Below, piece by piece: positions 7,919 through 54,398 of a stretch of 64,000 nt of DNA (within the stretch, counting starts at the first letter, position 1; each line of letters opens with the position of its first letter). Both the position numbers and the translations under genes were made by a program. The notes under the pieces were generated by a model. That model made no database searches, had not been told where the DNA came from, and worked only from the letters and a program-made list of their open reading frames with translations. This DNA comes from an uncultured delta proteobacterium (GTDB lineage: Bacteria; Desulfobacterota; RBG-13-43-22). The stretch is from the NCBI GenBank assembly GCA_963790475.1, contig CAWBOS010000015.1, positions 578,369 to 642,368 of the forward strand, given 5' to 3'.

Positions 7919-8051
7919 TGATGAACTCGCAAAAAGTCACCGAAGCCCGCATTAGTCATTCCGGCGAAAGCCGGAATCCAGTGATTTTAAGTAGTTTTAA
8001 TCTCCTGGACCCCGGCTTTCGCCGGGGTGACGACTTTTTGCGAATCCATCA
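7919..8051. mobile_element. MITE-like element, family A (20-bp TIRs enclosing two REP-like GAAA hairpins), 4-bp TSD CAGG
   Basis: TGATGAACTCGCAAAAAGTC ... GACTTTTTGCGAATCCATCA; CAGG at 7915-7918 and 8052-8055. Confidence 0.8.
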
Positions 8052-17508: not shown

Positions 17509-17647
17509 TGATTAGGTCATAAAGTTGTCATCCCAGCGAACCCCGGATCGGGTCCGGGGCAGGCGCCGGGATCCAGAATAATTATAACTTACTTAAAACA
17601 CTGGATTCCGGCTTTCGCCGGAATGACAATTTTTTACGATTAAATTA
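17509..17647. mobile_element. MITE-like element, family A (variant with extra CCCCGGA-TCCGGGG hairpin)
   Basis: gtcatcccagcgaa...gccgggatccag...ctggattccggctttcgccggaatgac with degenerate TIRs. Confidence 0.65.
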
Positions 17648-19410: not shown

Positions 19411-19549
19411 AAAAGGAATCTGTTATAAAAAGAAAACGAAAAGGGGGTGGTCTGCATATTTTTAAGTGAATAAAGCAAGTTAAGAGATTTTGTTTTCTTG
19501 AATTATGAAGCTATTTTTTAAACTGCACCCACAACAAGGAGAAAAAGAG

Positions 19550-20791
19550 ATGATGAAAAAATTAGGCATGTTTGCTTTTGTTATGGCCCTGGCAGTCGCC
19601 TTTTCCCTGCCGGCCTACGCTGGCACCATTGCCGGTGAAAAAGAATTTTCCGTAACTATAGGCGGTTTGTTTACCCTTGATGCGAACTACAAAATCACGG
19701 ACAAAAATTTCAATACCTTTATCAATGTTCCGACCGGCGGGGGGAAGGATAAAACCCAGTTCATCATGGATGTCCCCTTTTGGAGCTACCTGTATATACT
19801 GGTTAGGCAGGGGGGTTTCTCCGGCTATGCGGATATTGCTACCCAGATAACCCGTGAGTCTTCTAATCTCCAGGTTCCCACCACCAGCTTCCAAAACGAT
19901 GCCGACTTCATCTTAAACGGTCGATGGTACGGGAATTATCAATTCGGAGATATGTCAATAAGGGCAGGAAAGGATAATGGTTGGTTTGACTCCGATGCTT
20001 ATGGGGTCGCTCCGTCATCGGCCCTTGGTTATTCTACGGCCAACACTACCCACGTAGCCTTGATCGGCTGGGGCTGGGCGTATGACGGCAAGAACGCCAA
20101 TCTCAGGTTCCTCCACAACGTCACCAAGACCTTCGGCTACCAAATCGCCCTGGTTGATACCGGCACCTATGCTGAAACTGTCGGCGCGGCAACCAGGCTG
20201 TCCTATGCTCAATATCCGGGCATTGCCGCCAAGATCCTGTTGAACTTCGGTCCGGTGGCCCTTTATCCGGCCGCTGTCTACCAGCAGGTTAAATGGGATG
20301 CATTGACACCTGGGATGCAAGACAATATGACCGCCTGGGCGGGGACATTACCGGTAAGGGTCGCCGTTGGTCCTTTCGTGGCCGCAGCGCAGGTAACTTA
20401 TGGAAAGAACGTAGGTGGTGTGACCTCTGGAAACGTCCTGCTGCGAGGGGAAAATTCCAATACCGGTTATCTAAGGGATGCCGCCGGCAACATCCAAGAT
20501 ACCTCCGATTGGTCTGGCTTTATTGATCTGTCCTATGCCTTTGGTCCGGCGAAACCGCATATCTTTTTCGGTATGGACTATGCCCAAAATGACCACTGGA
20601 AGAATATTTTTAATGCCAACGATTACTATCAAAGGACGTCGTACGGGATCAATCTCTATTACACGATAGGCAACTTTCAAATTATTCCTGAAGTTGCCTT
20701 TTATGATTATGGAAACCTAGCTGGGGTACCAGGCAAACCAGCTTTAGGCACAGAGTGGTTGGCTGGCGTTCATTTCCGCTTCGCCTTTTAA
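19550..20791 (+). CDS. Outer-membrane beta-barrel protein (porin-like)
   Basis: Signal peptide ending PAYA, aromatic-rich alternating strands, C-terminal Phe, AAGGAG RBS. Confidence 0.75.
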   Translation: MMKKLGMFAFVMALAVAFSLPAYAGTIAGEKEFSVTIGGLFTLDANYKITDKNFNTFINVPTGGGKDKTQFIMDVPFWSYLYILVRQGGFSGYADIATQITRESSNLQVPTTSFQNDADFILNGRWYGNYQFGDMSIRAGKDNGWFDSDAYGVAPSSALGYSTANTTHVALIGWGWAYDGKNANLRFLHNVTKTFGYQIALVDTGTYAETVGAATRLSYAQYPGIAAKILLNFGPVALYPAAVYQQVKWDALTPGMQDNMTAWAGTLPVRVAVGPFVAAAQVTYGKNVGGVTSGNVLLRGENSNTGYLRDAAGNIQDTSDWSGFIDLSYAFGPAKPHIFFGMDYAQNDHWKNIFNANDYYQRTSYGINLYYTIGNFQIIPEVAFYDYGNLAGVPGKPALGTEWLAGVHFRFAF

Positions 20792-22645: not shown

Positions 22646-22724
22646 TGGAAAAGAGGTCGGGAGACGAGGAATGCAGTAACTACCATAAACCCGATAGTAT
22701 CGAAGAATTGTGTTCCATAAGCTT

Positions 22725-22859
22725 TGATGAATTTGATAAAAGTCGTCTCCCCGGCGAAAGCCGGGGTCCAGGAGATAAACAATTCATCGAAAAGACTGGA
22801 TTCCGGCTTTCGCCGGAATGACTTATTGCGGGGTTAGGCGATTCTTTAGAGTTTCACCA
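22725..22859. mobile_element. MITE-like element, family A
   Basis: gtctccccggcgaaagccggggtccag...ctggattccggctttcgccggaatgac within degenerate TIRs. Confidence 0.7.
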
Positions 22860-22920: not shown

Positions 22921-23238
22921 TTAACAACTGCAGGAAGTCCCGCAAGAACCCCCGCCTAAATTCAATGCGGAAGACACCGAAAAGCCAGACCGTCCGTTAT
23001 AATCGACGAAATCCACCTTCACTTCTTTAGCCTGTTCGGATAACGCTTTATCGATCAGATAAGTAATTCCATTGATATCAAATACGTTATCGGACTCTTT
23101 TGACTCATCCAGAGCCAAGGCCAGAGAGGGCCCTGATCACCCGCCTTGACTTAAGAAAACCCTTATGGGGGATTTGAGATTTTGTTTTTCAAAATGTTCT
23201 TTAAGTGCTGTTTGAGCTGCTTCGGTAACTGTTAACAT
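22921..23238 (-). CDS. HesB/IscA-like selenoprotein, 105 aa, Sec at codon 34 (TGA 23139-23137)
   Basis: AAAGGA RBS + ATG 23238; MLTVTEAA...PIRVFLSQGG-U-SGPSLALALDE is in frame with the 23118 ORF; C-terminal CGTSCSC. Confidence 0.88.
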
Positions 23239-23333
23239 GATGTTTCCTTTCTAAAATAAATTTATTACCCTCCGTATTTTCCCTTTGAAACCATAGCCGG
23301 TAAATTTAACTATAGGTATTTGATCTCCTTTTG

Positions 23334-24233
23334 TCAAGAAGGCCTACCGATCCTCTCCAGAACCGGTTGGAGGCTGATGCGATGGTCTCCCAGTCCGAGA
23401 TTGGCCCGGTCCAGGCCGAAGGCCAGGCCAATGAGCTGGGAAATAAAGAGAGTCGGTAATCCGAATCCGTCATGATGCTTCCTCTCCAGCATCATCTGAC
23501 CCCGGTCGAACTGGGAGAAGCAGGATGGGCAGGCCACAGCCACGGCCTCAATGTGGTGCTTTTTCATATGTTGCAGTTTTTCCCGAGTGATTTCATTGGC
23601 CGCCTGGGCATCAATATTGGTTCCCAGGGCCGAACCGCAGCAGAGGAATTTCCTGGAATATTGGGTCGGCTGGGCACCCAGCACCTCCAGGATATGATCC
23701 ATACTGACCGGCACATAACTGGCCGCTTCCGACAGCTCGTCGGGATACATGAGCCGTGGAGGCCGGTAGAGGTGACAACCGTAATGACACCCGATCCTTA
23801 TCCCGTCCAAAGGGTAGCGGACCTTCTCGGCCATGCGCTCCAAACCGACTTCTTTATAAAGGACATCCAGAAGGTGTTTAACCTCAATGGCTCCTTTGAA
23901 AACATGACCGGACCCTTCCAGGGCCTGATTGACCTGATTTCGCCTTTGGAGGTCCTCTTTCAGGATCAGGTTGACTTCTTTAAGGGTGTTGATGCAGCCG
24001 TTGCACATGGCCAGGATAGGCAGTCCGGCCTCTTCGGCCAGGCAGAGATTACGGGCCGCCAGGGCCAGCCAGGTATCGTAGTGGGCCAGCTTCATATTGG
24101 TTGGGGCCGGACAGCAGGAAAAGGGAAGGTCCACCAGTTCAATGTCCAGGGCCTTCATCACTTCCCGGGTGGCCTTTTCAAATCCCGGATATTTGACCGG
24201 GATGACACATCCTAAAAAAAATGCATATTTCAT
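23334..24233 (-). CDS. hdrB: Heterodisulfide reductase subunit B
   Basis: Two CCG domains: FLGC, FSCCP, CNGC, HYGCH, LCCG, CPSC. Confidence 0.92.
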   Translation of the reverse strand: MKYAFFLGCVIPVKYPGFEKATREVMKALDIELVDLPFSCCPAPTNMKLAHYDTWLALAARNLCLAEEAGLPILAMCNGCINTLKEVNLILKEDLQRRNQVNQALEGSGHVFKGAIEVKHLLDVLYKEVGLERMAEKVRYPLDGIRIGCHYGCHLYRPPRLMYPDELSEAASYVPVSMDHILEVLGAQPTQYSRKFLCCGSALGTNIDAQAANEITREKLQHMKKHHIEAVAVACPSCFSQFDRGQMMLERKHHDGFGLPTLFISQLIGLAFGLDRANLGLGDHRISLQPVLERIGRPS

Positions 24234-24263
24234 GAATTAAATACCAATCATCAGTATTAATAT

Positions 24264-24394
24264 TGACAAGTTCGTAAAAAGACCTCACCCCGGCGAAAGC
24301 CGGGGTCCAGGTAATTATACTAAAAAACACTGGATTCCGGCTTTCGCCGGAATGACTTATCCGAGTTTCAGGGACTTTTTTTATACGTCCCTCA
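24264..24394. mobile_element. MITE-like element, family A, between hdrC and hdrB
   Basis: tgacaagttcgtaaaaagac + ccccggcgaaagccggggtccag...ctggattccggctttcgccggaatgac. Confidence 0.7.
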
Positions 24395-24465
24395 ATCTCA
24401 TTTTTGAGTGAGAAATTCTACTTTCCTATTCTGACTTCTGACTCCTGCATTCTGAATTCCAAATT

Positions 24466-24933
24466 CTAACTCAGTTCAATTACTTCGTTCAATCCCGTTT
24501 TCTTCAAGATCCCTTCTATTTCATCGATATTCAAAGGATCAAGGGCAGGCAGAGAAAGTTTTTGCCGGTCCTTCAGGACCTTTTCATTGACGATCAGGCT
24601 GCGCCCCGTCTTGGCAATCATATCCACCCCGAATTTAATTTTTTCGGGAAGGTTGCCCCGTTGGGCCGCCAGGTTGAAAATGGCGGTCAATAATTCGGAA
24701 ATATTAATTTCCTGGGGGCAGCGGTCTTCACAGACATGACAGGTGGTGCAGTACCAGACCCGTTCGTCGTTAATGACCGCTTCCTGCCCTAAATTCAGAC
24801 AGCGAAGCAAAATTTCCCGCGGGCCATAGCATTTCATTACCATGGCCGCCGGGCAGCTTCCTGTGCAGCGAGCACACTGATAACATTCGAAAAGATCTTC
24901 TTTATTAAAAAGTTCCCAGATGCTGGTGATCAT
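24466..24933 (-). CDS. hdrC: Heterodisulfide reductase subunit C
   Basis: CYQCARCTGSCP and CTTCHVCEDRCP 2x[4Fe-4S] motifs. Confidence 0.9.
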   Translation of the reverse strand: MITSIWELFNKEDLFECYQCARCTGSCPAAMVMKCYGPREILLRCLNLGQEAVINDERVWYCTTCHVCEDRCPQEINISELLTAIFNLAAQRGNLPEKIKFGVDMIAKTGRSLIVNEKVLKDRQKLSLPALDPLNIDEIEGILKKTGLNEVIELS

Positions 24934-24946
24934 ATCTATTTATTCC

Positions 24947-25009
24947 TGACGGAGTTGCAAAAAGTCATCACTAGCCGATTTCCGTCATTCCGGCTTTCGC
25001 CGGAATGAC
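24947..25009. mobile_element. Truncated family A element (one TIR + one hairpin) between hdrA and hdrC
   Basis: tgacggagttgcaaaaagtc ... gtcattccggctttcgccggaatgac. Confidence 0.65.
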
Positions 25010-25040
25010 TCCCTTAAGATCCTCCAACCTAATTTAAAGC

Positions 25041-27494
25041 TTATTCTTTCGGTTCGGTACTCTCGCCTTTCCCCTTTTTCTTCGGCACCAGGGCCTTCCT
25101 GGCCTTTTCAATCTCCTCCGGGGTTACCGCTTTGATAATCTCATCCATTTCCTTCATCTTCCTGGCGAAGATGTTGCCTTCCGCCGCACTGATCCAGGCC
25201 AACTGGAGACGGTTTTTATCCAACCCGAGGCGTTCCATTTTTTTCCAGACTTTTTTAACCCTTTTTTCGGTCTGGTGATTGGCATTGATATAGTGGCAGT
25301 CTCCGATATGGCAACCGGAAACCAGGACAGCCGCCGCACCCCGCCGGAAGGCATATTCGATAAATTCGGTACTGATCCGGCCGGAGCACATGGTGCGGAT
25401 GATCCGTATGGGGGCCGGGTATTGCATCCGGCTGACACCGGCAAAGTCAGCCCCGGCGTAAGAACACCAGTTGCAGCAAAAGGCCACGGCCTTGGTCTCC
25501 GGGGCTTCTTCGGTGATGGCATCGATCTGGGCATAAATCTGCTGATCGGTGAAATGTCTCTGGGTAATGGCCGAAAACGGGCACTCGGCCACACAGGTTC
25601 CGCACCCGGCGCAAGAGGCCTGGGTCACCTGGGCGATCTGGGTTTCCGGGTCCTGCCGAATGGACGAGTAAGGACAGACCTTGACACACATCCCACATCC
25701 CTGACAGAGGGTTTCGTCAATGACAGCGGTAATGGCCTCCACGTTGACCTTTCCCTGAGCCATCAGGATATTGGCCCGGGAAGCGGCGGCACTGGCTTGG
25801 GTTACCGAATCTTTGATGTCCTTCGGACCTTCGGCACAGCCGGCCAGAAAGATCCCGCCGGTGGGGGTGTCGACCGGGCGGAGTTTGGGATGAGCCTCCA
25901 GGAAAAAACCATCTGAGGCACAAGAGAGGTTCAGGAGACGCTGGATGGCCGGACTGTCCTTCCTGGGTTCGATCCCCACGGAAAGGATGGCCATATCGAC
26001 TTCATAGCGATAGAGTTGGGAAAGGAGGGAGTCTTCACCGATCAAGGTCAGATTGTTGGTCTCCGGGTCTTCGATGATCTCTCCCGGGACCCCCCGGATA
26101 AAGGAGACCCCTTCCCGTCTGGCCCGCTGGAACAGGTCTTCAAAGCCTTTTCCAAAGGCCCGGATATCGATATAAAACACCAGAATTTTGGTCTCCGGCC
26201 AGTGTTCCTTGATCAGCAGGGCATCTTTAATGGTATTCATACAGCAGATGTTGCTGCAGTATATATTGGAGCGTTTGGAACGGGACCCGATACATTGGAG
26301 AAAGGCCACGGTTTTGGGGATCTGCTGATCCGACGGCCGGATCAGATTTCCGCCTGAAGGTCCGCCGGCATTGATCAGGCGTTCGAATTCCAGGCTGGTA
26401 ATGACATTGGGAAACTTGCGGTATCCGAATTCGGTCAAGGGCGTCGGGTCATAGACATCCACCCCGGTAGCCACAATAATGGTCCCGACATCCAGGGTCA
26501 GAATTTGATCGTTCTGGGAATAATCCACACATTGTCGTTGACAGGCCTGAAAACATTTATCGCAGGCCACAATGCCCTGTTTATTTAAACATAGATCCAT
26601 GTCAATCTGGTAAGTGGAAGGGACAGCCTGGGCAAAGGACATATAGATAGCCCGGCGCATGGAAAGTCCGGCATTGAATTCATCAGGGGCCACTTGCGGG
26701 CAGACCTTGGCGCAATCGCCGCAGGCGGTACAAGAATCGGTGACAAAGCGGGCCTTCTTGCGGACCTGGACGGTAAAATTGCCCACATATCCTTCAACCT
26801 TCTCGATCTCGCTCATGGTCAACAATTCAATATTGGGATGCCGCCCGGCCTCGGACATCTTGGGGGCCAGGATGCAGATGGAGCAGTCCATGGTCGGGAA
26901 GGTCTTATCGATCTGGGCCATTCGTCCGCCTATACTGGGGTCTTTTTCAACCAGATAAACCTTGTAGCCGCTGTCCGCCAGATCCAGAGCGGCCTGAATG
27001 CCGGCCACCCCGCCGCCGACGACCAGGGCCTTTCGAGTGACCGGGACTTCGAAGATTTCCTGGGCGGCCAGATATCGGGATCGGGCCACAGCCATTCGGA
27101 CCAGGTCCTGCGCTTTTTCGGTGGCAGCGGCTTTGTCGTGAAGATGGACCCAGGAACAGTGTTCCCGGATATTGGCCATCTCAAAGAGATAGGGGTTTAA
27201 CCCGGCATCCTGACAGGCGGCACGGAAGGTCGGCTCATGCAGGCGGGGGGTGCAGGAGGCCACCACCACCCGGTTCAACCGCTGTTCTTTAATATCGGCT
27301 TTGATCAGTTCCTGCCCCGGTTCGGAACAGGTATAAAGATTATGTTTGGACAGGACCACCCCGGGAAGGCCGGCGGCAAACTCGGCCACTTGGGCACAAT
27401 CCACCACACCGCCGATATTCAATCCGCAATGACAGACATAGACCCCGATCCGGGGTTCTTCTTTTTCTTTTCGTTGTACTTTTTTGGGGGTCAA
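25041..27494 (-). CDS. hdrA: Heterodisulfide reductase subunit A with C-terminally fused MvhD domain
   Basis: GVYVCHCG, GGGVAG FAD motif, DKTFPTMDCSIC, QCIGSR..CSNICC, ferredoxin motifs; C-terminal FCCNWCSYAGAD..MCSGR..GCHIGDCHY is MvhD. Confidence 0.93.
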   Translation of the reverse strand: MTPKKVQRKEKEEPRIGVYVCHCGLNIGGVVDCAQVAEFAAGLPGVVLSKHNLYTCSEPGQELIKADIKEQRLNRVVVASCTPRLHEPTFRAACQDAGLNPYLFEMANIREHCSWVHLHDKAAATEKAQDLVRMAVARSRYLAAQEIFEVPVTRKALVVGGGVAGIQAALDLADSGYKVYLVEKDPSIGGRMAQIDKTFPTMDCSICILAPKMSEAGRHPNIELLTMSEIEKVEGYVGNFTVQVRKKARFVTDSCTACGDCAKVCPQVAPDEFNAGLSMRRAIYMSFAQAVPSTYQIDMDLCLNKQGIVACDKCFQACQRQCVDYSQNDQILTLDVGTIIVATGVDVYDPTPLTEFGYRKFPNVITSLEFERLINAGGPSGGNLIRPSDQQIPKTVAFLQCIGSRSKRSNIYCSNICCMNTIKDALLIKEHWPETKILVFYIDIRAFGKGFEDLFQRARREGVSFIRGVPGEIIEDPETNNLTLIGEDSLLSQLYRYEVDMAILSVGIEPRKDSPAIQRLLNLSCASDGFFLEAHPKLRPVDTPTGGIFLAGCAEGPKDIKDSVTQASAAASRANILMAQGKVNVEAITAVIDETLCQGCGMCVKVCPYSSIRQDPETQIAQVTQASCAGCGTCVAECPFSAITQRHFTDQQIYAQIDAITEEAPETKAVAFCCNWCSYAGADFAGVSRMQYPAPIRIIRTMCSGRISTEFIEYAFRRGAAAVLVSGCHIGDCHYINANHQTEKRVKKVWKKMERLGLDKNRLQLAWISAAEGNIFARKMKEMDEIIKAVTPEEIEKARKALVPKKKGKGESTEPKE

Positions 27495-27522
27495 CCCATT
27501 ACTCCTTTTTTACAAACAGTAT

Positions 27523-27613
27523 TGAGGAGTCAGAATTAAGAATCAAGAATAAAAACAACCCGAGATTCTAATCTCCTGACTTCTGTCTCCTGACTACTGG
27601 CTCCTGACTTCTG
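27523..27613. repeat. Inverted heptamer arms (GGAGTCA / CTCCTGA-type), overlapping the korC stop
   Basis: gaggagtcagaattaagaatcaagaat ... ctcctgacttctgtctcctgactactggctcctgacttctg. Confidence 0.7.
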
Positions 27614-28157
27614 TTTGTTTCCCGTACTCAAAGCCCTTTTCAAAAGCTTTGAGATTCAACTCTTCGGTCCCGCTGGGGATGGAATCAAAAAGGGCCTTTT
27701 TCATGGCCTCATACCCAACCACTTCGGTAACCGCGGTAATAAACCCGAGCATGACGATATTGGCGACGATCTTTCGGCCCAGCTTTTCCGCCAGCCGGGT
27801 GGCCGGTATTTTAAAAAGGAGGCACCCTTTTGGAACAGTATCCATCTGTACCAGGTCCTCATCAATCAGGACCATGGCCTGATCGGACATTTGCCGGCCA
27901 TAGGTGCTTTTGGCCTCTTCGGACATCAGGACCAGGATTTTAGGCAGGGAAACCCGGGGATAATAAATGGCCCTGCCGGAAATAATCACATCGGCACTGC
28001 AAGCCCCGCCGCGGGCCTCAGGCCCGTAGCTTTGGGTGAAAACGGCTTGAAGCTGTTCATAAAGGGAAGCTGCCTTGCCCAGAATATTTCCGGCCAGGAT
28101 GATTCCCTGGCCCCCGAACCCGGCCAGTCTGATCTCGGTTTTTTCGTTTGTGCTCAT
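27594..28157 (-). CDS. korC: 2-oxoacid:ferredoxin oxidoreductase gamma subunit
   Basis: AGFGGQG, QSYGPEARGG, ANIVMLG. Confidence 0.88.
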   Translation of the reverse strand: MSTNEKTEIRLAGFGGQGIILAGNILGKAASLYEQLQAVFTQSYGPEARGGACSADVIISGRAIYYPRVSLPKILVLMSEEAKSTYGRQMSDQAMVLIDEDLVQMDTVPKGCLLFKIPATRLAEKLGRKIVANIVMLGFITAVTEVVGYEAMKKALFDSIPSGTEELNLKAFEKGFEYGKQTEVRSQ

Positions 28158-28217
28158 CTGATATTTACTTGTCTTTAGGGTAAAAGCCTAAAATTAACTT
28201 ATCAGTCTTTCGGGGGT

Positions 28218-28309
28218 CAGGCCGAAGGCTGTTAGACTGAAGGCTGAAGGTCTAATGAATTAAACTCATTTTTTTACCTTCAGTCTTCAGCCTAATCGTC
28301 TTCAGTCTG
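28218..28309. repeat. Inverted heptamer arms (GGCTGAA / TTCAGTC)
   Basis: agactgaaggctgaagg (28234-28250) versus ccttcagtcttcagcct (28277-28293). Confidence 0.72.
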
Positions 28310-29210
28310 ATTTATTTCCCGTTCTCCTGAATTTTTTCAGGATTTTTTCCTCATATTCTCCCAAAAAGGTGGGTCGTTTTTCCTCGGAAAATTTCCCCAC
28401 TACGATCTTTCCTCTCAGGGAAATATCCACGTCCCTGGGATCGGCCCCATTCTGGACTATACTGTTTTCTTTGTAATAGATCATCTCATCCAAACCGCTG
28501 CCGATTTTATTGGGACGTCCATACCCTATAGGACAGGGGGCGATGACTTCTATAAAGGTAAATCCATCGATGGCAAAAGTCTCGGCAATGGAATTAACCA
28601 ATTGCCGGGCATGGAAAGTAGTCCAGCGGGCCACATAAACCGCTCCACAGGCATGGGCCAGATAAGGCAGATTGAACGAGGCCTCTGAATTACCGTAGGG
28701 CGTCGTTGTCGTCCTGGCCGTAACCGGTGTGGTCGGGGCCACCTGGCCCCCGGTCATCCCATAATTAAAATTATTGACACAGATGACCTTGAGGTTGACA
28801 TTTCTCCGGGCGGCATGAATGAAGTGATTTCCCCCGATGGCAAAGAGATCGCCGTCACCGCTGAATACAGTCACTGACAGGTCGGGACGGGTCAAGGACA
28901 ATCCGGTGGCAAAAGGGATGGCCCGGCCGTGCGTAGTGTGGTAAGTGTCCATATTCAGGTAACCGGCCACCCGGCCTGTACAGCCGATGCCGGAAACAAC
29001 AACCGTTTTGTCAAGCGGGACACCGGTCATCTTCAAACCGTTAATATAGGTGTTCAAGACCACACCCAATCCACAGCCCGGGCACCAGATATGAGGAATT
29101 CTGCCCGGTTTCAGATACTGGTCATCAGGATGAAGGCCATGTTGTTCATCGATGAGGCGAAGGAATGCTTCCTGATCAAAAGGGACGACAGGTTGATACC
29201 GTATCTTCAT
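28302..29210 (-). CDS. korB: 2-oxoacid:ferredoxin oxidoreductase beta subunit (TPP-binding)
   Basis: WCPGCG, SGIGC, HGRA, GDGD, NNFNYGMTGGQ; start 29210 overlaps the alpha-subunit stop. Confidence 0.9.
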   Translation of the reverse strand: MKIRYQPVVPFDQEAFLRLIDEQHGLHPDDQYLKPGRIPHIWCPGCGLGVVLNTYINGLKMTGVPLDKTVVVSGIGCTGRVAGYLNMDTYHTTHGRAIPFATGLSLTRPDLSVTVFSGDGDLFAIGGNHFIHAARRNVNLKVICVNNFNYGMTGGQVAPTTPVTARTTTTPYGNSEASFNLPYLAHACGAVYVARWTTFHARQLVNSIAETFAIDGFTFIEVIAPCPIGYGRPNKIGSGLDEMIYYKENSIVQNGADPRDVDISLRGKIVVGKFSEEKRPTFLGEYEEKILKKFRRTGNKSD

Positions 29211-30358
29211 GGCAGATATTCCTTGACCGCTTCCATAATGTCTTCCGGAGTATGGATGGCTCCGCCCATTAAAGGCAGAAGGACCGTCTCGGCCTGACCC
29301 TGGGCACAACGTTCCACTTCATAAGCCATTTGGCCGTAATTGATTTCAGGAACGATGAAAGCCTTGATCCCTTTAGCCAACTGACGGATCTTTTCCTCGG
29401 GGAAAGGCCAAAGCGTAATCAGACGCAGAAGCCCCACTTTCTTGCCTTGGGAACGAAGAAGTTGGACAGCCTCCCGGGCCGTCCGAGAGGTGCAGCCATA
29501 GGCCACGACTACCACTTCCGAATTCCTGGTTTCGAATTCTTCCACCTGAATGATTTTGGAGGCGTTGAGACGGATTTTATCCACCAGCCGTCGAACCGTC
29601 CGCTCATGGACCTGGGCAACGGTTTGGGGATAACCTTGCTCATCATGGGTCAAGCCGGAGACATGAACATGATACCCTTCCCCGGCACAGGCCATTGCGG
29701 GGACGAGATCGGCCCCGGCCATAAACGGCAAATAGGCATCCGGAGATTGACTCGGTCGGACCCTGGAAACCCGATGAATTTGATCCGGAGGCGGGATAAT
29801 CACTTTTTCGGACATGTGTCCGACCAGTTCATCTCCCAGGACAAATACCGGCAGTCGGTAGGTCTCGGACAAATTAAAGGCCTCGATGGTCAGGTCAAAC
29901 ATCTCCTGGGGGGAAGATGGGGAAAGGGCGATGACCTCGTAGTCCCCATGGGAGCCCCAGCGGGCCTGCATAACATCGGCCTGTCCGACCAAGGTAGGCA
30001 GTCCGGTGGAAGGCCCGCCACGCATGATATTGACGATAACGCAAGGGGTCTCGGTCATCATGCCCAGACCGATGTTTTCCATCATTAAAGAAAACCCCGG
30101 CCCGGAAGTGGCGGTCATGGATTTGATTCCGCCCCAGGAGGCCCCCAGGATGGCGGCCACCGAAGCGATTTCGTCTTCCATCTGGATACAGATTCCCTGA
30201 ACCTGGGGCATACGTCTGGCCATCCGTTCGGCGATTTCCGTGGCCGGTGTAATGGGATAGCCGGCAAAAAACCGGCAGCCGGCGGCAATGGCCCCTTCCG
30301 CACAGGCTTCGTCACCATTAATGAAATATTCGCCGGTCAAAATTCCTGAATCAGACAT
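29207..30358 (-). CDS. korA: 2-oxoacid:ferredoxin oxidoreductase alpha subunit
   Basis: GYPITP, QMEDE, TSGPGFSLM, RGGPSTGLPT. Confidence 0.9.
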   Translation of the reverse strand: MSDSGILTGEYFINGDEACAEGAIAAGCRFFAGYPITPATEIAERMARRMPQVQGICIQMEDEIASVAAILGASWGGIKSMTATSGPGFSLMMENIGLGMMTETPCVIVNIMRGGPSTGLPTLVGQADVMQARWGSHGDYEVIALSPSSPQEMFDLTIEAFNLSETYRLPVFVLGDELVGHMSEKVIIPPPDQIHRVSRVRPSQSPDAYLPFMAGADLVPAMACAGEGYHVHVSGLTHDEQGYPQTVAQVHERTVRRLVDKIRLNASKIIQVEEFETRNSEVVVVAYGCTSRTAREAVQLLRSQGKKVGLLRLITLWPFPEEKIRQLAKGIKAFIVPEINYGQMAYEVERCAQGQAETVLLPLMGGAIHTPEDIMEAVKEYLP

Positions 30359-30373
30359 ACTGGTTTATTCTTC

Positions 30374-30673
30374 CTATCTTGAACCGCCGACAATATCTTC
30401 GGCCGTCAACTCTTTGTGTTCTTTAAGGACGCTGTAAATAGCGAATTCCGGGCAAATGATCTCACACAGATTGCAATTGACGCATTCCCCCTGCTTGGAG
30501 ACCAAAGGGGGATGATAGCCTTTTTTGTTGAATTCCGGGGCTTCCTTAAGGACCTGGTTAGGACAAAACTCAACGCAAAACCCGCAGCCCTTGCAGCGGT
30601 CTTTGATAATATGCAGCTCCCCGATCGGTATGGAATGGGAAGCGGCATCCAGCGGCAGTCTCCAGAATTTCAT
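30374..30673 (-). CDS. korD: 2-oxoacid:ferredoxin oxidoreductase delta subunit (2x[4Fe-4S])
   Basis: CKGCGFCVEFCP, CVNCNLCEIICP. Confidence 0.88.
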   Translation of the reverse strand: MKFWRLPLDAASHSIPIGELHIIKDRCKGCGFCVEFCPNQVLKEAPEFNKKGYHPPLVSKQGECVNCNLCEIICPEFAIYSVLKEHKELTAEDIVGGSR

Positions 30674-30698
30674 TCGATACTCCTATACAAAATCTTAC

Positions 30699-30728
30699 TT
30701 TATACCCTAAAAGGGAAGAAAATGTCAA
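30699..30728 (-). promoter_or_regulatory. Sigma70-type promoter for the kor-hdr cluster
   Basis: Minus strand TTGACA-18 bp-TATAAA, then AGGAG RBS. Confidence 0.6.
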
Positions 30729-30753
30729 TATGATTTTAATCACCGGACTGGAT

Positions 30754-30912
30754 TGAAAAACATGCAAAAAGTCGTCACCCCGGCGAAAGCCGGGATCCAG
30801 GAGAATTCTAACTGCTTTAAAATACTGGATTCCGGCTTTCGCCGGAATGACTTTATTTGGGTTTTGGCGACTTTTTACAAATCTGTCCTAATTGATGGAC
30901 TTGCAAAAAATC
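30754..30912. mobile_element. MITE-like element, family A, plus an adjacent extra TIR (30893-30912)
   Basis: gtcgtcaccccggcgaaagccgggatccag...ctggattccggctttcgccggaatgac...cgactttttac; then tgatggacttgcaaaaaatc. Confidence 0.7.
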
Positions 30913-30921
30913 CCTTATATT

Positions 30922-32355
30922 CTAATCCCCTTCGCTCTTTACCGAGGTTTCCATGGTAATCCCATATTTTTCTATCTTGGATTGGAGCGTCGGTCGGGAA
31001 ACACCGAGAATCTTGGCTGCCCGACTTCGGTTACCGCCGGTGATATCCAGGGCCTCGCTGATCAGTGCGCTGGCAACGTGGTCGATCAGATTGTCAAATT
31101 TATCCATACCCGGCTCGTTCATCAAGGCCTTTCGAGCCCACTGCCTGATTGAACCATCACCCGGTGGCCCATCGGCCCTGACGAGGGCTTCCCCTTGAAT
31201 GAGTTGAGAGATGTCCTCGGGACGGATGGGATATCCCCGGCTGAAAATCAGGGCTTTTTGGATGGTATTGGCCAATTCCCGGACGTTGCCGGGCCAGTGA
31301 TAATTTTTCAGCACCCCTCTGGTTTCATCGGTCATACCCGGGTTGTCGATATCCATCGATTTGGCGAACCGATCTAAAAAATATTCGGCCAGTCTGGAAA
31401 TATCCTGGAGACGCTCGCGTAAAGGAGGGAGCCAGATCGTCACCACCTTGAGTCGATAATAAAGATCCTCACGGAATCTTCCCTCGGCCAGACCGGCCTC
31501 CAGATCCCGGTTGGTGGCGGCGATAATCCGCACATCCACAGGGATGGGCTCGCGGCCTCCCAAACGCTCGATACTTTTTTCCTGAAGCAGGCGTAATATT
31601 TTAGACTGGATGCTGAAGGGCATATCGCCGATTTCATCGAGAAAGATGGTCCCGCCGTTGGCCTGCTCAATCCTTCCCATCCGCCGGCTGACGGCTCCGG
31701 TAAAGGCCCCTTTCTCATACCCGAACAGTTCGCTTTCCAGCAATGTTTCCGGGATGGCCACACAGTTGATGACCAGAAATGGTTTGCCGGCCCGCTGGCT
31801 GTGTTGATAAACAGCCCGGGCTACCAGTTCCTTGCCTGTGCCTGATTCGCCGCGCACCAGGACCGTAGCCTCGGTCGGGGCGACCCGCCCAATGGCTTTA
31901 TAGATCTCCTGCATCGGCTTGCTTTGTCCGATAATGACCTCACTGGAAGGGGTTTTAGGAAGGATATCGATTTCCACCTGGGAACGCATAAACCGGCTGG
32001 CCTCCAGGGCCTGAGTGATTAGTTTCAAAATATCCGGAATATCGAAAGGTTTGAGAATATAATCAAAGGCCCCTAATTTTGTGGCCTCGATGGCCGTTTC
32101 GGTGGTCCCGAAGGCGGTCATGATGATCACCGGAAGTTTGGACTCGATCTCCCGTATAGCGAGAAAGGTCTCCAGTCCGCTCATCCCCGGAAGGCGCAAA
32201 TCCAACAGAACCAGATCCGGCAAAACCGAACGCAGGACGTCCAGGCCGGTCTCACCGCTGGCAGCGGTCAATACTTCATGACCCTCTTCGGTCAGGAGCT
32301 TCTCGAAGCTCTCCCGGATTTGATAATCATCATCAATAATCAGAATGACGCCCAT
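30922..32355 (-). CDS. Sigma54-dependent response regulator (NtrC family)
   Basis: Receiver, [30 protein letters not shown], Fis-type HTH. Confidence 0.95.
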
Positions 32356-32398
32356 AGGTCCTTTCCCAGGCTCTATCGTCCTGGACTGTTTTTCTCAT

Positions 32399-33913
32399 TT
32401 ACTCCGAACCCAGAACCCCGAGCTCCGAAATATTTTCTCGGTAAGGAAGAGTGATCACAAAGGCGGTTCCCTCCCCCTCCTGAGAGCGGAGGCCTATGCT
32501 TCCGCCATGTTTTTCCACGATCCGCGAGGCGATACTCAATCCCAATCCGGTACCCTCTTCTTTAGTGCTGAAGAAGGGTTGAAAGATGTTTTCCTGAATC
32601 GATTCGGGTATGCCCGGACCGTTGTCGCTTACGGTTATGGTGGCAACCTTTTTCCCGGTCTCCACAGTTTCCTCCTTTTCCAAAATACGGATCCACCCGC
32701 CCTTAACCATGACTTCACAGGCATTGACCAGCAGATTCACCAAAACCTCCTTTAATTGATCCGGATCGGCCCAGATTTCGGGCAAGGGATTTTCCCGGAT
32801 CAATTCAACCTGGACCCCGTTGGATTCCAACCGGTGTTTCATAAGTCGGAGGGTCATATCGACCACTTCGGAAGGACTGACCTTTTGCATGGTCAGTTTG
32901 GGCGGCCGGGAAAATTCAAGAAAACTCCGGACAATGGATTCAATATGACGGATTTCCTCTGAAATAACCTCCAGGTCTTCTTTCTGAGTAGGGGATAAGT
33001 CCGGAGTGCGGCCCATGGAAAAGAGACGGATTTTCACTGAGGTCAATGGATTTCTAATGCTATGGGCTACGCCGGCCGCCAATTTACCGGTCAAGGCCCA
33101 TTTCTCCGATTGGACCAGATGTTCCTGACTGCGGGCCAGCTTGTTCTGAGTCTGGTCGACATCCTCAATCAAACTGTGCACCCGATGGCTGAGGACATTG
33201 ACTTCGTTGGACAGCGGGGGTTGGCTGTCATCAGGACCTGTGGCCTTGGTCAAGCGGCGAATAGGCTCCAGGATCTGCTTGAAAAGAATATAGGCCAGCA
33301 GGACACCCATCATAGCCGCCAATTGAATAGCGATCAAGGCCGCCGTACTGATATATCGCGTGCGGACCTGGGCATTTTTTCTGGCCTGGCCAATATTTTT
33401 TAGGTGGATATCCTTATACTGCTCGCAGAGGTTCACAATAGACAGGAACTGAGGGCGGGCCCGGAGATGGAGTTTAGTCCCTGATTCCTCCTCACCGTTT
33501 TGATAAAGATGAATGACTTCCTGCCGGCTGCTTTTATAGTGGAGGTATTCTGATTCGATTTTACCCAAAAGACTCCAGGCGGTTTCCATTCGTGCGTATT
33601 CTCTGGCTTTAAAAAGTTTTTCTTCAAAGGCCTTCTGGTACGTTTCCAATTGTTTCAACCAATCCGGGTTGCCGTCCTGGAAGTAATAGGTGATAAATCC
33701 TTTCTGCATGACCAGAGCGGTTTCCATTTCTTCGGCCACCTGGAAAGAGAGGATATCCCGGTCCAGTATCGAAGTGAAAAGGGAACCGATGGTATCCGCA
33801 TACCAGATGGTGGCCAGCCCCCCTCCGATCGTGGTTAAAACCAAGGCGATCAGAAGGATGATGATTCGTGCCCTTAGACTGAGTTGTTTAAGCATTGGAA
33901 TTAGCCTTTTCAA
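32399..33913 (-). CDS. Sensor histidine kinase with helical periplasmic domain
   Basis: Two TMs, AHSIRNPL, DNGPGI, PFFSTK, GTGLGL. Confidence 0.92.
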   Translation of the reverse strand: MKRLIPMLKQLSLRARIIILLIALVLTTIGGGLATIWYADTIGSLFTSILDRDILSFQVAEEMETALVMQKGFITYYFQDGNPDWLKQLETYQKAFEEKLFKAREYARMETAWSLLGKIESEYLHYKSSRQEVIHLYQNGEEESGTKLHLRARPQFLSIVNLCEQYKDIHLKNIGQARKNAQVRTRYISTAALIAIQLAAMMGVLLAYILFKQILEPIRRLTKATGPDDSQPPLSNEVNVLSHRVHSLIEDVDQTQNKLARSQEHLVQSEKWALTGKLAAGVAHSIRNPLTSVKIRLFSMGRTPDLSPTQKEDLEVISEEIRHIESIVRSFLEFSRPPKLTMQKVSPSEVVDMTLRLMKHRLESNGVQVELIRENPLPEIWADPDQLKEVLVNLLVNACEVMVKGGWIRILEKEETVETGKKVATITVSDNGPGIPESIQENIFQPFFSTKEEGTGLGLSIASRIVEKHGGSIGLRSQEGEGTAFVITLPYRENISELGVLGSE

Positions 33914-37582: not shown

Positions 37583-40500
37583 ATGTTCCTTTCCAATCTT
37601 TCCATTAAAAGACCGATATTCGCCACCATGATGATGCTGGCCCTGGTCATTCTGGGGATTTTTTCCTATCGCCGGCTGGCCGTAGATATGTATCCGGATG
37701 TGGAAATCCCGGTCCTTTCCATCGTCACCATTTTTCCCGGAGCCTCTCCGGAGACGGTGGAACGGGAAGTGACCAAACGGATCGAAGAGGTGGTCAACCG
37801 CATTTCCGGGGCCAAACACGTCATCTCCATCTCCCGGGAAAGTGTCTCCCAGGTGGTGGTTGAGTTTCAACTGGAAGTAAAGATCAACGAGGCCTCACAG
37901 GATGCCCGGGCCAAGATCAACACCATCCGCAAGGATCTTCCCCAGGATATCGAAGAACCGGTCATTCAAAAAATTGATATTTCCGGCATGCCGGCCGTCT
38001 CTCTGGCGGTACGGTCCGAAAGCCTTATCCCCGAGAGATCTGACCACCCTGGTGGAAAAAAAGGTCAAACGCAGTTTTGAAAACATCTCCGGTGTCGGCA
38101 AGGTGGAATTGGTCGGGTCTTCCAAACGGGAGGTCAACATCTGGATTGATCCCTTTCGCCTGCAGGCCTTAAATTTAGGCGTGGACGAGGTCATAGCCGG
38201 TCTGCAATCGGAAAATGTCAATATCCCTCTGGGCCGATTGAACCGCAACGGTTCCGAATTTCCCCTTCGGGTGTCCGGAAAACCAGAGGAAGTGGAACAG
38301 TTCAAGACCATGGTCATCGGTCAACGAGGAGGCCGCCCGATCCTCTTAAGCGAGGTGGCCGATGTCCGGGACGGCATGGAAGAACAACGTTCCCTGGCCA
38401 TGATCAATGGCATACCGGCCGTGTCGCTCAATATCCTTAAACAAACCGGGGCCAATACGGTGGAGGTGGTGAATAACGTCAAAAAAACCATCGCCAGGCT
38501 TCAGAAAGAACTTCCTGCCGGGACCATCATCGATATCGTCCAGGATTCTTCCATCGTCATCCGGGATTCGGTTCGTGACGTCCAGGAGACCATGATTCTG
38601 GGCGGTATTTTAACCATCCTGATCGTTTTTTGCTTTCTCAATTCCTGGCGTTCCACGGTAATCACCGGCCTGACTCTGCCTATTTCGGTCATCTCTTCTT
38701 TTATCGTCATGAACTTTGTAGGTATGACCATCAACGTCATGACCTTAATGGCCTTGTCGTTGGCCATCGGCTTATTGATCGATGATGCCATAGTCGTCCG
38801 GGAAAACATCGTCCGCCATCTGGAACGGGGTCAGGATCATATCACCGCCGCCCAGGATGGGACCAGCGAGATTGGGCTGGCCGTTTTGGCCACCTCCTTT
38901 TCGATTGTGGCCGTTTTTGTCCCGGTGGCCTTTATGAAGGGAATTGTGGGGCGTTTTTTCTTCCAATTCGGGATTACGGTGACCTTTGCGGTTATCATTT
39001 CCCTGTTTGTCTCCTTCACCCTTGATCCCATGCTCTCCTCACGCTGGTTCGACCCGGATATTGAAAGAAAAGGGGAAACGGCATTTTCTGGCCCGAATGC
39101 TGGATTATTTCAATCATTGGTTTGACTGGATGGCCGATCGATACCGATTGGTTGTTGCTTGGGCTTTGGATCATCGCAAGTCGGTGATGGTGATCACCAC
39201 CCTGGCCTTTTTGGCCGGCTTGTCTATATTTATCAACCTCCCCAATGCCTTTTTCCCTTCCTTCGACGCCAGTGAATTCCAATTGAACTTTACCACCGCA
39301 CCGGGGTCCTCCATAGAGGAAACCCGGGGACGGGTGGCTGCCGTCCTGTCGACCCTGAAGCAACTCCCCGAGATCAAACATACCTACACGACCATCGGGG
39401 CCGGAGACACCGGAACTGTCCGGGATGTGCGTATGTTTATTAAATTAAAAGAGCGCAGCGAGCGGTCCCGAAGTCAAACCCAGCTACAGGAAGAAGTGCG
39501 GCGCAGGATCATGGAGATTCCGGGTATTTTGCCTTCGATCATGGAAGCCGGCCGGATGGACAGCCGAAAACCGTTGCTCGTCAGTATCCGAGGGGATGAT
39601 ATTACCGAGCTTAAAAAATATGCCGCCCAGCTCAAAGCGATGGTCCGTCCCATCAAAGGTATCGTCGATCTTGATGTCACTCTGGAACAGGACGTCCCTG
39701 AATACCGCCTGACCGTCGATCGGGAGAGAGCCGTGGACACCGGCTTGATGACCGCCAATATTGTCCGCACCGTGGGGGCCCTGGTGGGAGGGAAGGCCGT
39801 GTCCACTTATGAAGATGAGGATGGTGACGCCGTCGACCTGCGGGTGCGGCTCCCGCAGGACCTTACGGCAGGACCCGGATCAGGTGAAACAGTTGCGATT
39901 ATCCGTTCAGAAATTGGGTCAGCCTCCCGCCTTGGTTCCCCTCGGCGACCTGGTTTCCTACCAAAGGAAAACCACCCCCTCGGAGATTAACCGTCAGGAC
40001 CTTTCCCGGGAAGTGGTCCTCTCAGCCAACCTGGACAAACTGCCTCTCGGCTCGGCCATGGCCAAGATCAAGGAGGTCATAAAAAACTTGAAAATGGCCC
40101 CCGGGTATAAAGTGGTTTTCTCCGGTGAAGGGGAGGATATGGTGGAATCCTTTGGTTATATGGCCGAGGCCTTGATCCTGGCGATTCTTTTTGTCTATCT
40201 GATACTGGCCTCCCAGTTCGAGTCCTTTATCGATCCGTTGGCCATTATGCTGTCTTTGCCTCTTTCCCTGGTGGGTATGGCCGGGATGCTTTATCTGACC
40301 GGCGACACGATCAATATGATGTCTCTTATCGGTCTCATCATGCTGATGGGTCTGGTGACCAAAAATGCCATTTTGCTGGTGGATTACACCAAGGTCCTTC
40401 GTTCCCGGGGGCTGGAACGAAAAGAGGCCATTATCACCGCCGGTCGGACCAGGCTGCGGCCCATCATGATGACCACCCTGGCCATGATCTTCGGCATGCT

Positions 40501-40687
40501 GCCCCTGGCCCTGGCCCTGGGTTCCGGGGCGGAGATGCGGGCCCCCATGGCCCGGGCCGTTATCGGAGGGCTGATCACTTCCACTTTTCTGACCTTGCTG
40601 GTGGTCCCGGTGGTTTACTCCCTGCTTGATGATGTCAGTGAACATTTCCGTCGGAAGCGGGCACAAAAAAAGGAGGTCCTTTCATGA
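37583..40687 (+). CDS. RND efflux permease (AcrB/D/F family), split by three +1 frameshifts
   Basis: SIKRPIF, GLLIDDAIVVRENI, KNAILLVD and RLRPIMMT in successive frames. Confidence 0.88.
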
Positions 40688-54252: not shown

Positions 54253-54398
54253 TGAGGAACCTATAAAAAGTCGTCACCCCGGCGAAAGCCGGGGTCCAGG
54301 GAAAATTATAACTACTTTAAACTACTTTAAAAGACTAGATTCCGGCTTTCGCCGGAATGACGTGATTTGAGTTTTGGCGACTTTTTAAGAATCCGTCA
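54253..54398. mobile_element. MITE-like element, family A
   Basis: tgaggaacctataaaaagtcgtcaccccggcgaaagccggggtccag...cgactttttaagaatccgtca; internal ACTACTTTAA duplication. Confidence 0.72.

Follow-up and report, generated by a model that had tools for sequence, protein, structure and literature searches.

Gene clusters that combine a 2-oxoacid:ferredoxin oxidoreductase (Kor) with a heterodisulfide reductase (Hdr) have been described before, and the present work concerns another, an operon of eight genes on the minus strand of a 64,000-nucleotide (nt) stretch of DNA from an uncultured delta proteobacterium (contig CAWBOS010000015.1, positions 578,369 to 642,368), which we refer to as the window. 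In the tubeworm symbionts Ca. Endoriftia and the Escarpia symbiont, and in Thioflavicoccus mobilis, korABCD is interleaved with flxABCD-hdrABC, tfrAB and a reverse tricarboxylic acid (rTCA) cycle cluster, and the authors propose, in the portion of the paper available to us, that Hdr-type bifurcation passes electrons directly to the 2-oxoglutarate:ferredoxin oxidoreductase (OGOR) (PMC6315080). The accessible text of two later papers reports that co-expression in Endoriftia supports the Kor-Flx-Hdr link (PMC11636981) and, in a 2026 survey, cites that link (PMC13147460), and the available part of a study on Ca. Celaenobacter (Cloacimonadota) describes an OGOR-TFR-Mvh-Hdr cluster that was read as a functional link to the rTCA cycle (PMC8542988). 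With such Kor-Hdr clusters in print (PMC6315080, PMC11636981 and PMC8542988, each as far as its available text goes), the initial annotation of this DNA went too far in calling the operon an undescribed system.

Like the tubeworm-symbiont cluster, the window places a four-subunit Kor among hdrA and hdrBC genes, and an hdrCB-hdrA-korDABC arrangement found elsewhere in the window's phylum lies in the same kind of TCA gene cluster. Unlike in that cluster, no flx, tfr, acl or further TCA genes were found within ~15 kb of the window's operon, its genome lacks ATP-citrate lyase (ACL), its HdrA is an HdrA2-type fusion with MvhD, and its genes are contiguous (korDABC-hdrA2CB) rather than interleaved. 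The Celaenobacter cluster also joins OGOR and Hdr, but has a Mvh hydrogenase donor and TCA genes, neither of which is in the window. The HdrA2B2C2 enzyme of Methanosarcina acetivorans, as set out in the available part of its description, is similar in that an HdrA-MvhD fusion occurs with HdrB and HdrC and without a hydrogenase or formate dehydrogenase (Fdh) module, and differs in using F420H2, free ferredoxin and the coenzyme M-coenzyme B heterodisulfide (CoM-S-S-CoB) (PMC5296606). The window's genome, in contrast, is not that of a methanogen and lacks cofH and cofE, and its kor genes stand in the same operon as hdrA2. The archaeal hdrA2 and hdrB2C2 genes lie at separate loci. With the methanogen Fdh-Hdr-Fmd and Mvh-Hdr(-Fwd) complexes (7bkb, 5odc, 8rvu) the operon shares an HdrABC-type core, recognizable by sequence, and may by analogy share the wiring of a CO2-fixing low-potential enzyme to Hdr through a ferredoxin-type subunit, which is the polyferredoxin FmdF in the methanogen Fmd-Hdr complex and would be KorD here; unlike those complexes, it has a thiamine pyrophosphate (TPP)-dependent 2-oxoacid oxidoreductase as the partner instead of formylmethanofuran dehydrogenase, and no hydrogenase or Fdh donor. 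A full-text literature search, with supplements outside its scope, found only rTCA-type clusters described, and neither the korDABC-hdrA2CB operon nor a korDABC-hdrL-mvhD/hdrCB-hdrA2 cluster. What we regard as new is the minimal donor-less form, its separate old subclade, the presence of cysteine in place of selenocysteine (Sec), and the prediction of a docking peptide on KorD.

Judged by gene neighbourhood across many genomes, Kor and Hdr form a conserved module and are not chance neighbours. In the reading that we prefer, KorDABC and HdrA2-HdrC-HdrB would constitute one physically coupled redox complex that bifurcates electrons in the reductive direction, and we give this reading as a whole a probability of about 0.5. 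The operon is made up as follows.

30699..30728, minus strand: sigma-70-like promoter upstream of korD, read from the sequence (TTGACA at 30728-30723, an 18-nt spacer, TATAAA at 30704-30699)
30374..30673, minus strand: korD, delta subunit, 99 residues, two 4Fe-4S motifs; Pfam Fer4 families
29207..30358, minus strand: korA, alpha subunit, 383 residues; Pfam POR_N (1e-70) and PFOR_II
28302..29210, minus strand: korB, beta subunit, 302 residues, TPP-binding; Pfam TPP_enzyme_C; its ATG start overlaps the korA stop
27594..28157, minus strand: korC, gamma subunit, 187 residues; Pfam POR
25041..27494, minus strand: hdrA2, the HdrA-MvhD fusion, 817 residues, TTG start, Cys207 rather than Sec; FlpD domain at 670-789
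24466..24933, minus strand: hdrC, 155 residues, two [4Fe-4S] clusters; TIGR03290 at 109.5 bits, below the cut-off of 160
23334..24233, minus strand: hdrB, 299 residues, two CCG domains with a putative disulfide-reducing site; TIGR03288 at 290 bits, below the cut-off of 345
22921..23238, minus strand: hesB/iscA selenoprotein gene, a frame of 105 residues with an in-frame TGA as codon 34

Gene calls together with Pfam and NCBIfam comparisons bore out the eight genes that had been named at the outset, in the order korD-korA-korB-korC-hdrA2-hdrC-hdrB-hesB/iscA(Sec) over 22921-30728 of the minus strand, as well as the lack of a recognizable electron donor beside them: no Mvh, Fdh or Flx genes, mvhAG and flxABCD included, were found in the operon or among the open reading frames (ORFs) of at least 160 residues between 8 and 46 kb, that is, for ~15 kb around.

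The Pfam domains of all four Kor subunits were found above their cut-offs with the genes side by side, the composition of a four-subunit 2-oxoacid:ferredoxin oxidoreductase. KorA scored 582.8 bits against NF006412, a generic '2-oxoacid:acceptor oxidoreductase alpha' model with a cut-off of 411, and its nearest solved chain, 1yd7_A (E 3.5e-129), is annotated as an uncharacterised '2-keto acid:ferredoxin oxidoreductase'. The best NCBIfam matches of KorB and KorD were NF007207 (OGOR beta subunit, 237 bits, cut-off 364) and OGOR_delta (64 bits, cut-off 125), both below cut-off, and KorC fell slightly short of its model NF006323 (228.5 bits against 235). That only the generic alpha-subunit model is passed, and that the nearest solved chain is uncharacterised, would fit an enzyme for another 2-oxoacid (pyruvate, branched-chain or aromatic) in a module for the catabolism of amino acids or aromatic compounds, as would the lifestyle of some named carriers of the module, such as Desulfoprunum benzoelyticum, which by their names we take to be aromatic degraders. 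We nevertheless consider another substrate rather improbable, as OGOR-specific models rank first among the matches of KorB and KorD and second among those of KorA, and as the KorA proteins of clusters embedded among rTCA genes, described below, are 58-64% identical to that of the window.

The linkage of kor to hdr, which the initial annotation had expected to be conserved, was found in each of three comparisons. All 8 same-family loci that were fetched match the window in the content and order of the eight genes, with identities of 73-95%. Across the phylum we surveyed an even sample of 401 genomes, 279 of which had a KorA match at E <=1e-90, and compared 89 loci from outside the family whose KorA is at least 56% identical to that of the window with 33 control loci whose KorA is 51-55% identical, counting as linked an HdrA match of >400 residues on the same strand within ~9 kb of kor. 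HdrA lies beside kor in 67 of the 89; of the remaining 22, 15 run into a contig end within 8 kb, where part of an hdrA is still seen in 2, and 7 have full flanks (L044, L071, L072, L077, L080, L086 and L095). None of the 33 control loci, 15 of which have full flanks, contains Hdr genes. The reverse search, with an HdrA2 profile against named public records, returned 80 loci, and kor stands on the same strand as hdrA2 in 51 of these, or 51 of the 56 that could be judged; five full-flank HdrA2 loci, Desulfobulbus rhabdoformis among them, lack kor. By label, the kor-linked records account for 17 of 22 from Thermodesulfobacteriota, 6 of 14 from Chloroflexota, 3 of 5 from Bathyarchaeota, 3 of 4 from Planctomycetota and 3 of 3 from Acidobacteriota, and with Spirochaetota, Gemmatimonadota, Zixiibacteriota and others they span about a dozen phylum labels, Bathyarchaeia included, labels that for metagenome bins can be wrong.

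The phylogeny of KorA agrees with this distribution. A FastTree of 191 KorA rows places all Hdr-linked KorA proteins but one in a single clade of 144 rows with a local support of 99, a kind of support that is weaker than a bootstrap, and the lone exception belongs to a second kor set that is merely near the hdrA2 of another set. Linkage switches state only 5 times over 147 scored rows, which being related are not independent.

In one genome of the window's own genus the orthologous locus (G004:C19:66186-71475) looks broken, with HdrA2 in three pieces (93-97% identical) and an internal TAA in KorA; either the copy is decaying or the assembly is at fault.

Three cluster architectures can be told apart. 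The compact type, that of the window, consists of korDABC-hdrA2-hdrC-hdrB with no donor encoded in cis; it forms its own KorA subclade of 30 rows, recurs in two further families of the phylum (14 complete loci, HdrA2 68-74% identical to that of the window), and appears with variant gene orders in bins labelled Spirochaetota, Bathyarchaeia and Planctomycetota; no named isolate was identified among its carriers. In the second and commonest type, korDABC is followed after ~5 kb by an hdrA2 that is 58-63% identical to the window's, often with hdrC-hdrB after it. The ~5-kb insert of Desulfoprunum benzoelyticum DSM 28570 (locus L201) encodes a protein of 1129 residues (Fer4, Fer4_20, Pyr_redox_2) and an MvhD-HdrC-HdrB fusion. 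By its domains the 1129-residue protein is a GltD/NfnB-like NAD(P)H module, and we call the type after HdrL, a name that originates from Desulfobacterium autotrophicum (PMC2702500). The remark in the initial annotation that no donor module is present applies to the compact form of the window, but not to most of its relatives, whose clusters include an HdrL gene of the NAD(P)H type.

The HdrL-type clusters share with the window the Kor clade, the type of HdrA2, the KorD motif discussed below and the position of kor upstream of hdrA2 on one strand; they differ in that the window has neither an HdrL gene nor the MvhD-HdrCB fusion, has separate hdrC and hdrB genes after hdrA2, and has cysteine in place of Sec. 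At the position of Cys207 in the window's HdrA2, 7 of 7 examined HdrL-type hdrA2 genes carry a TGA (Sec) codon, and in the sequences compared the Sec/Cys switch in HdrA2 tracks cluster architecture. The motif at this site is TMDCSI-U-ILGPKM in the HdrL-type proteins (L040, L046, L059, L099, L100, L036 and L105), and the compact-type proteins have cysteine there.

The third type, hdrC-hdrB-hdrA-korDABC, is embedded among rTCA genes, and its HdrA is unfused and ~45% identical to that of the window, with KorA at the 58-64% noted above. In a complete genome of 2.5 Mb the locus includes genes for an ACL-like protein, isocitrate and malate dehydrogenases, fumarase, a soluble fumarate-reductase-like pair and succinyl-CoA synthetase, and across the 16 loci of this type an iron-sulfur protein is present in 16, a fumarate-reductase-like flavoprotein in 14, SucC in 8 and an ACL-like protein in 4. 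HdrL-type loci with TCA genes nearby are few (malate dehydrogenase in 6 of 75, isocitrate dehydrogenase in 4 of 75). One further locus, L098 (G302:C70:1-12335), has the interleaved order korD-korA-hdrA-mvhD ... korB-korC-hdrC-hdrB and resembles the published tubeworm-symbiont arrangement.

The Hdr subunits of the window retain the cofactor sites of characterized enzymes. HdrA2 scored 1240 bits against NF040770, the NCBIfam model for HdrA2 (cut-off 1100), over positions 1-777, and is the only protein of its genome above that cut-off, which a single one of 14 control genomes passes. Its residues 12-660 align with HdrA of Methanothermococcus (5odc_A, E 1e-249), with ~60% identity in HdrA to the methanogen supercomplexes, and residues ~666-797 align with MvhD (5odc_D, E 3e-42). 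K423 and E371 do not vary in either of two alignments, each of 10 relatives, and correspond to K409 and E356 of 5odc_A, which the available part of a 2025 paper describes as key residues of the bifurcating flavin, at flavin N5, in the solved enzyme (PMC12054007). By these residues HdrA2 is a predicted electron-bifurcating HdrA, the type to which it had first been assigned. All ten cluster cysteines of the two CCG motifs of HdrB align with 5odc_B, HdrC aligns with 9sfi_E and 5odc_C (E ~1e-25), and the two proteins thus have the sequence features of a heterodisulfide-reductase-type catalytic pair. Specificity for CoM-S-S-CoB is not implied, because the CoB-CoM equivalog models for HdrB and HdrC remained below their cut-offs.

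A contact between KorD and HdrA2, for which the initial annotation had suggested a test, was returned by complex prediction. With HdrA2 and KorD as the partner, each supplied with a 10-row alignment of compact-type relatives, the complex score was 0.70 and that of the best control 0.00; the score mark is attained by 116 of 157 solved complexes and by 2 of 215 mismatched pairs, a calibration that is only rough with custom alignments. The runs agree in at least 86% of contacts, with a partner pLDDT (predicted local distance difference test) of at least 80. In the predicted interface KorD residues 1-16 contact HdrA2 at 266-279 and 303-311, in the inserted ferredoxin domain, and at 359-390, and the MvhD domain is untouched. 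The model supports binding of KorD to HdrA2.

The contacting N-terminal peptide of KorD, MKFWRLPLD, has M1, W4, R5, P7 and D9 invariant in a 10-row alignment of compact and HdrL types. A motif derived from it, W[RK]xP[LFIMV][DE], occurs in 30 of 31 loci of the compact type and 71 of 73 of the HdrL type, in 1 of 15 rTCA-embedded loci (the others carry a related RKP(L/F)NL peptide) and in none of the distant control loci. Of 21 unlinked loci whose flanks are full, 2 have it, and Hdr-like fragments remain near both. Inside the clade, losses of linkage are accompanied by loss of the motif, in about two independent events. These observations bear on the simplest alternative, that there is no complex and that Kor and HdrA2BC are separate, co-regulated enzymes sharing a free ferredoxin pool. 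Gene linkage alone is not proof of binding, neighbours tested blind pass the complex test only occasionally by its calibration, the operon is broken by gaps of 99-232 nt and by the repeat insertions described below, and KorD is a normal delta subunit of the four-subunit oxidoreductases that use free ferredoxin. Set against this, the association of this Kor clade with HdrA is specific and ancient, extending over about a dozen phylum labels and three gene orders, and the KorD peptide is mostly limited to Hdr-linked copies and coincides with the predicted contact, so that we hold independent enzymes to be the least probable of the explanations considered. That Kor and Hdr act as a unit, whether physical or functional, we consider likely.

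From the observed gene content, conservation and cofactor motifs we infer a complex, its direction, its substrate and its disulfide, in a scheme that would operate like the methanogen Fmd-Hdr supercomplex. The N-terminal peptide of KorD would dock on HdrA2 at the inserted ferredoxin domain and the flavin domain, and Kor would substitute for free ferredoxin at the low-potential branch of HdrA2. In the 2017 structure of Mvh-Hdr, the inserted ferredoxin domain of HdrA is reportedly the low-potential arm to ferredoxin. HdrC and HdrB would form the high-potential branch, reducing a disulfide for which DsrC is the candidate in this organism, and the HdrA2 flavin would be the coupling point, with a mid-potential input, through the MvhD domain or at the flavin itself, that has no partner encoded in cis. 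Bifurcation at the flavin would send one electron to the disulfide and the other directly to Kor, where it would drive the reductive carboxylation of an acyl-CoA, probably of succinyl-CoA to 2-oxoglutarate, in a reaction that should be reversible in principle. Electrons may be donated by NAD(P)H at the flavin or, in trans, by a module docked on the MvhD domain, a role that the HdrL encoded in cis would fill in the relatives. The genome holds 14 MvhD-type domains and at least 10 other Hdr-like clusters. Among its contigs (C6, C10, C12, C13 and C15) are at least 9 further HdrL/HdrA-MvhD clusters, many with an in-frame TGA, and these might act in trans as donors at the MvhD port of HdrA2.

To carboxylate reductively, 2-oxoacid:ferredoxin oxidoreductases require electrons near -500 mV, and the means by which anaerobes provide them are a long-standing problem in work on the reverse TCA cycle and on anabolism in Wood-Ljungdahl organisms. 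The fact that this Kor clade is almost always encoded with HdrA2, under about a dozen phylum labels that include archaea, points to a widespread and biochemically unstudied enzyme, which would couple 2-oxoacid chemistry directly to flavin-based electron bifurcation and bypass free ferredoxin. The compact donor-less operon would be its minimal form, of seven redox subunits, and the predicted docking peptide of KorD offers a testable handle.

The reductive, bifurcating direction is favoured by the rTCA-embedded architecture, which lies in TCA gene clusters, and by the rTCA contexts of the published Kor-Hdr clusters, yet taken by itself we rate it somewhat short of an even chance. Several observations count against the complex, its direction or its substrate as we have drawn them. 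Without a donor the reductive direction is thermodynamically impossible, and none is encoded in the operon or within ~15 kb. None of the 32 compact-type loci had TCA genes within ~9 kb, and the genome of the window gives no sign of an rTCA cycle: it contains carbon monoxide dehydrogenase/acetyl-CoA synthase, but ACL was not found in it. We accordingly rejected an rTCA role for this organism. The OGOR-specific NCBIfam models all stayed below their cut-offs (KorD 64 against 125 bits, KorA 397 against 579, KorB 237 against 364). The interface of KorD with HdrA2 expresses model confidence and is not a measurement, and the contacted HdrA surface is not specific to Kor-linked enzymes, because it is largely conserved in methanogen HdrA too. 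The co-variation of the KorD motif with linkage amounts to only 4 independent contrasts (sign test p ~0.5), so that this comparison is underpowered. Finally, terminator-like hairpins derived from repeat elements sit between hdrC and hdrB.

In a rival explanation the same proteins would form a complex that runs in the opposite direction, without a donor, from a 2-oxoacid through KorD, HdrA2, HdrC and HdrB to a disulfide such as that of DsrC, with Kor as the electron-input module. This first rival would be a hard-wired version, by analogy, of the ferredoxin:heterodisulfide oxidoreductase activity of the Methanosarcina enzyme, which according to the available part of its description oxidises reduced ferredoxin and reduces the heterodisulfide without a further subunit (PMC5296606), a precedent made pertinent by the score of the window's protein against the HdrA2 model. 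It requires no unseen partner, matches the gene content in cis exactly and agrees with the lack of a TCA or rTCA context around the compact type. The alternative input, F420H2, is excluded for this organism because its genome, rated 100% complete, yielded no cofH match above cut-off and no F420-ligase (PF01996/cofE) match, and the control genomes gave the expected matches. The genome, which is of a sulfate-reducer type, also encodes two DsrC genes, which makes DsrC, the disulfide suggested in the initial annotation, plausible here; it is unlikely to be the general acceptor, since many carriers belong to groups that are not known to reduce sulfate (Chloroflexota and Bathyarchaeia, for instance), in which Dsr genes were not searched for and may be lacking. 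The oxidative direction would moreover waste ~0.3 V with no evident conservation of energy, it leaves the conserved bifurcation residues and MvhD domain without a need, and the relatives carry an NAD(P)H module or lie in rTCA clusters. Overall we judge it doubtful, though a stronger contender than a different substrate or separate enzymes.

A more specific form of the oxidative direction, which we likewise regard as unlikely, would make Kor the donor module of a new class of Hdr supercomplex, a '2-oxoacid:heterodisulfide oxidoreductase' in which a CO2-releasing TPP enzyme replaces hydrogenase, Fdh or Flx and docks by the KorD peptide. If this were so, 2-oxoglutarate oxidation in sulfate reducers would be wired straight to DsrC without free ferredoxin, a new electron route to DsrC, and the HdrL-containing relatives would be an NAD(P)-coupled elaboration, confurcating or bifurcating, of an ancient core present in Bacteria and Bathyarchaeia. 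Our preferred reading remains that of a coupled complex working in the reductive direction.

Signals for transcription of the operon were read as consensus matches only. The TTGACA-18-TATAAA site upstream of korD bears out the sigma70-type promoter of the initial annotation on that footing, and an AGGAG ribosome-binding site precedes the korD ATG; a consensus promoter scan omitted the site because it demands T at position 6 of the -10 hexamer. A closer match, TTGACA-17-TATAGT (11 of 12 consensus positions, 23337-23309), lies just before hesB and is stronger than the korD promoter, and since it directly precedes the gene, hesB may have its own promoter as well. Linkage of hesB to the operon is confined to the window's family (the gene follows hdrB in all 8 family loci but in 0 compact-type loci of other families). 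With the TGA read as a residue, the HesB/IscA protein scores 136.4 bits against the selenoprotein subfamily model NF038090 (cut-off 85); the hairpin after the TGA, a potential selenocysteine insertion sequence, folds no better than shuffled sequence (z -0.23), so the selenoprotein call rests on the family model.

Intergenic gaps of 99-232 nt occur within the operon, and four copies of a dispersed repetitive extragenic palindromic (REP)-like element flank or interrupt it.

30753..30877, strand not assigned: REP-like element upstream of the korD promoter, from sequence comparison
24947..25013, strand not assigned: partial REP-like element in the hdrA-hdrC gap, from sequence comparison
24262..24360, strand not assigned: REP-like palindromic element between hdrC and hdrB, bearing two hairpins that resemble terminators on the minus strand
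22724..22848, strand not assigned: REP-like element downstream of hesB, containing the hairpin 22819-22800

The element is ~125 nt long and dispersed in the genome (123 blastn high-scoring segment pairs, 22 of them of at least 100 nt), with further copies in the window at 7931-8051, 17595-17627 and 54266-54387. Its core consists of CCGGCGAAAGCCGG hairpins, each followed by a run of T, which score as intrinsic terminators on the minus strand. The terminator that had been placed after hesB is thus present as the hairpin 22819-22800, but is weak evidence for the end of the transcript because it belongs to an element that also occurs inside the operon. The long gaps of the window's operon coincide with the REP copies, and the tight operon of the sister genus, with 31-72 nt between korC and hdrA2 and 4-10 nt between hdrC and hdrB, is without those copies. 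RNA evidence for co-transcription was sought in one soil metatranscriptome, in which 8% of sampled words were present and no contig bridged a gene junction; the contigs, of 251-405 nt and 85-99% alike to the window, came from relatives, and the depth peak at 24215-24477 corresponds to a REP element.

Immediately upstream of the kor promoter, and likewise on the minus strand, lie genes for a sigma-54-dependent response regulator and for a histidine kinase whose sensor is 4HB_MCP-like (30922-33913); in another family, two compact-type loci (L032 and L141) have comparable regulators upstream of kor. A sigma-54 promoter for korD was considered and rejected: the sigma-54 consensus TGGCACG-N4-TTGCW gave 6 matches in the window at up to 2 mismatches, where 5.99 were expected, and none upstream of korD.

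Elsewhere in the window, an AcrB/AcrD/AcrF-type efflux pump is spread over three overlapping ORFs (37902-40687, plus strand; profile positions 147-502, 487-780 and 766-1020) followed by an outer-membrane factor gene, and is either a frameshifted pseudogene or the product of assembly errors. Beside serA, an ORF of 428 residues (19505-20791, plus strand) has no Pfam or NCBIfam match; its position is kept in four genomes of the genus at 34-44% identity, with the neighbouring genes at 85-95%.

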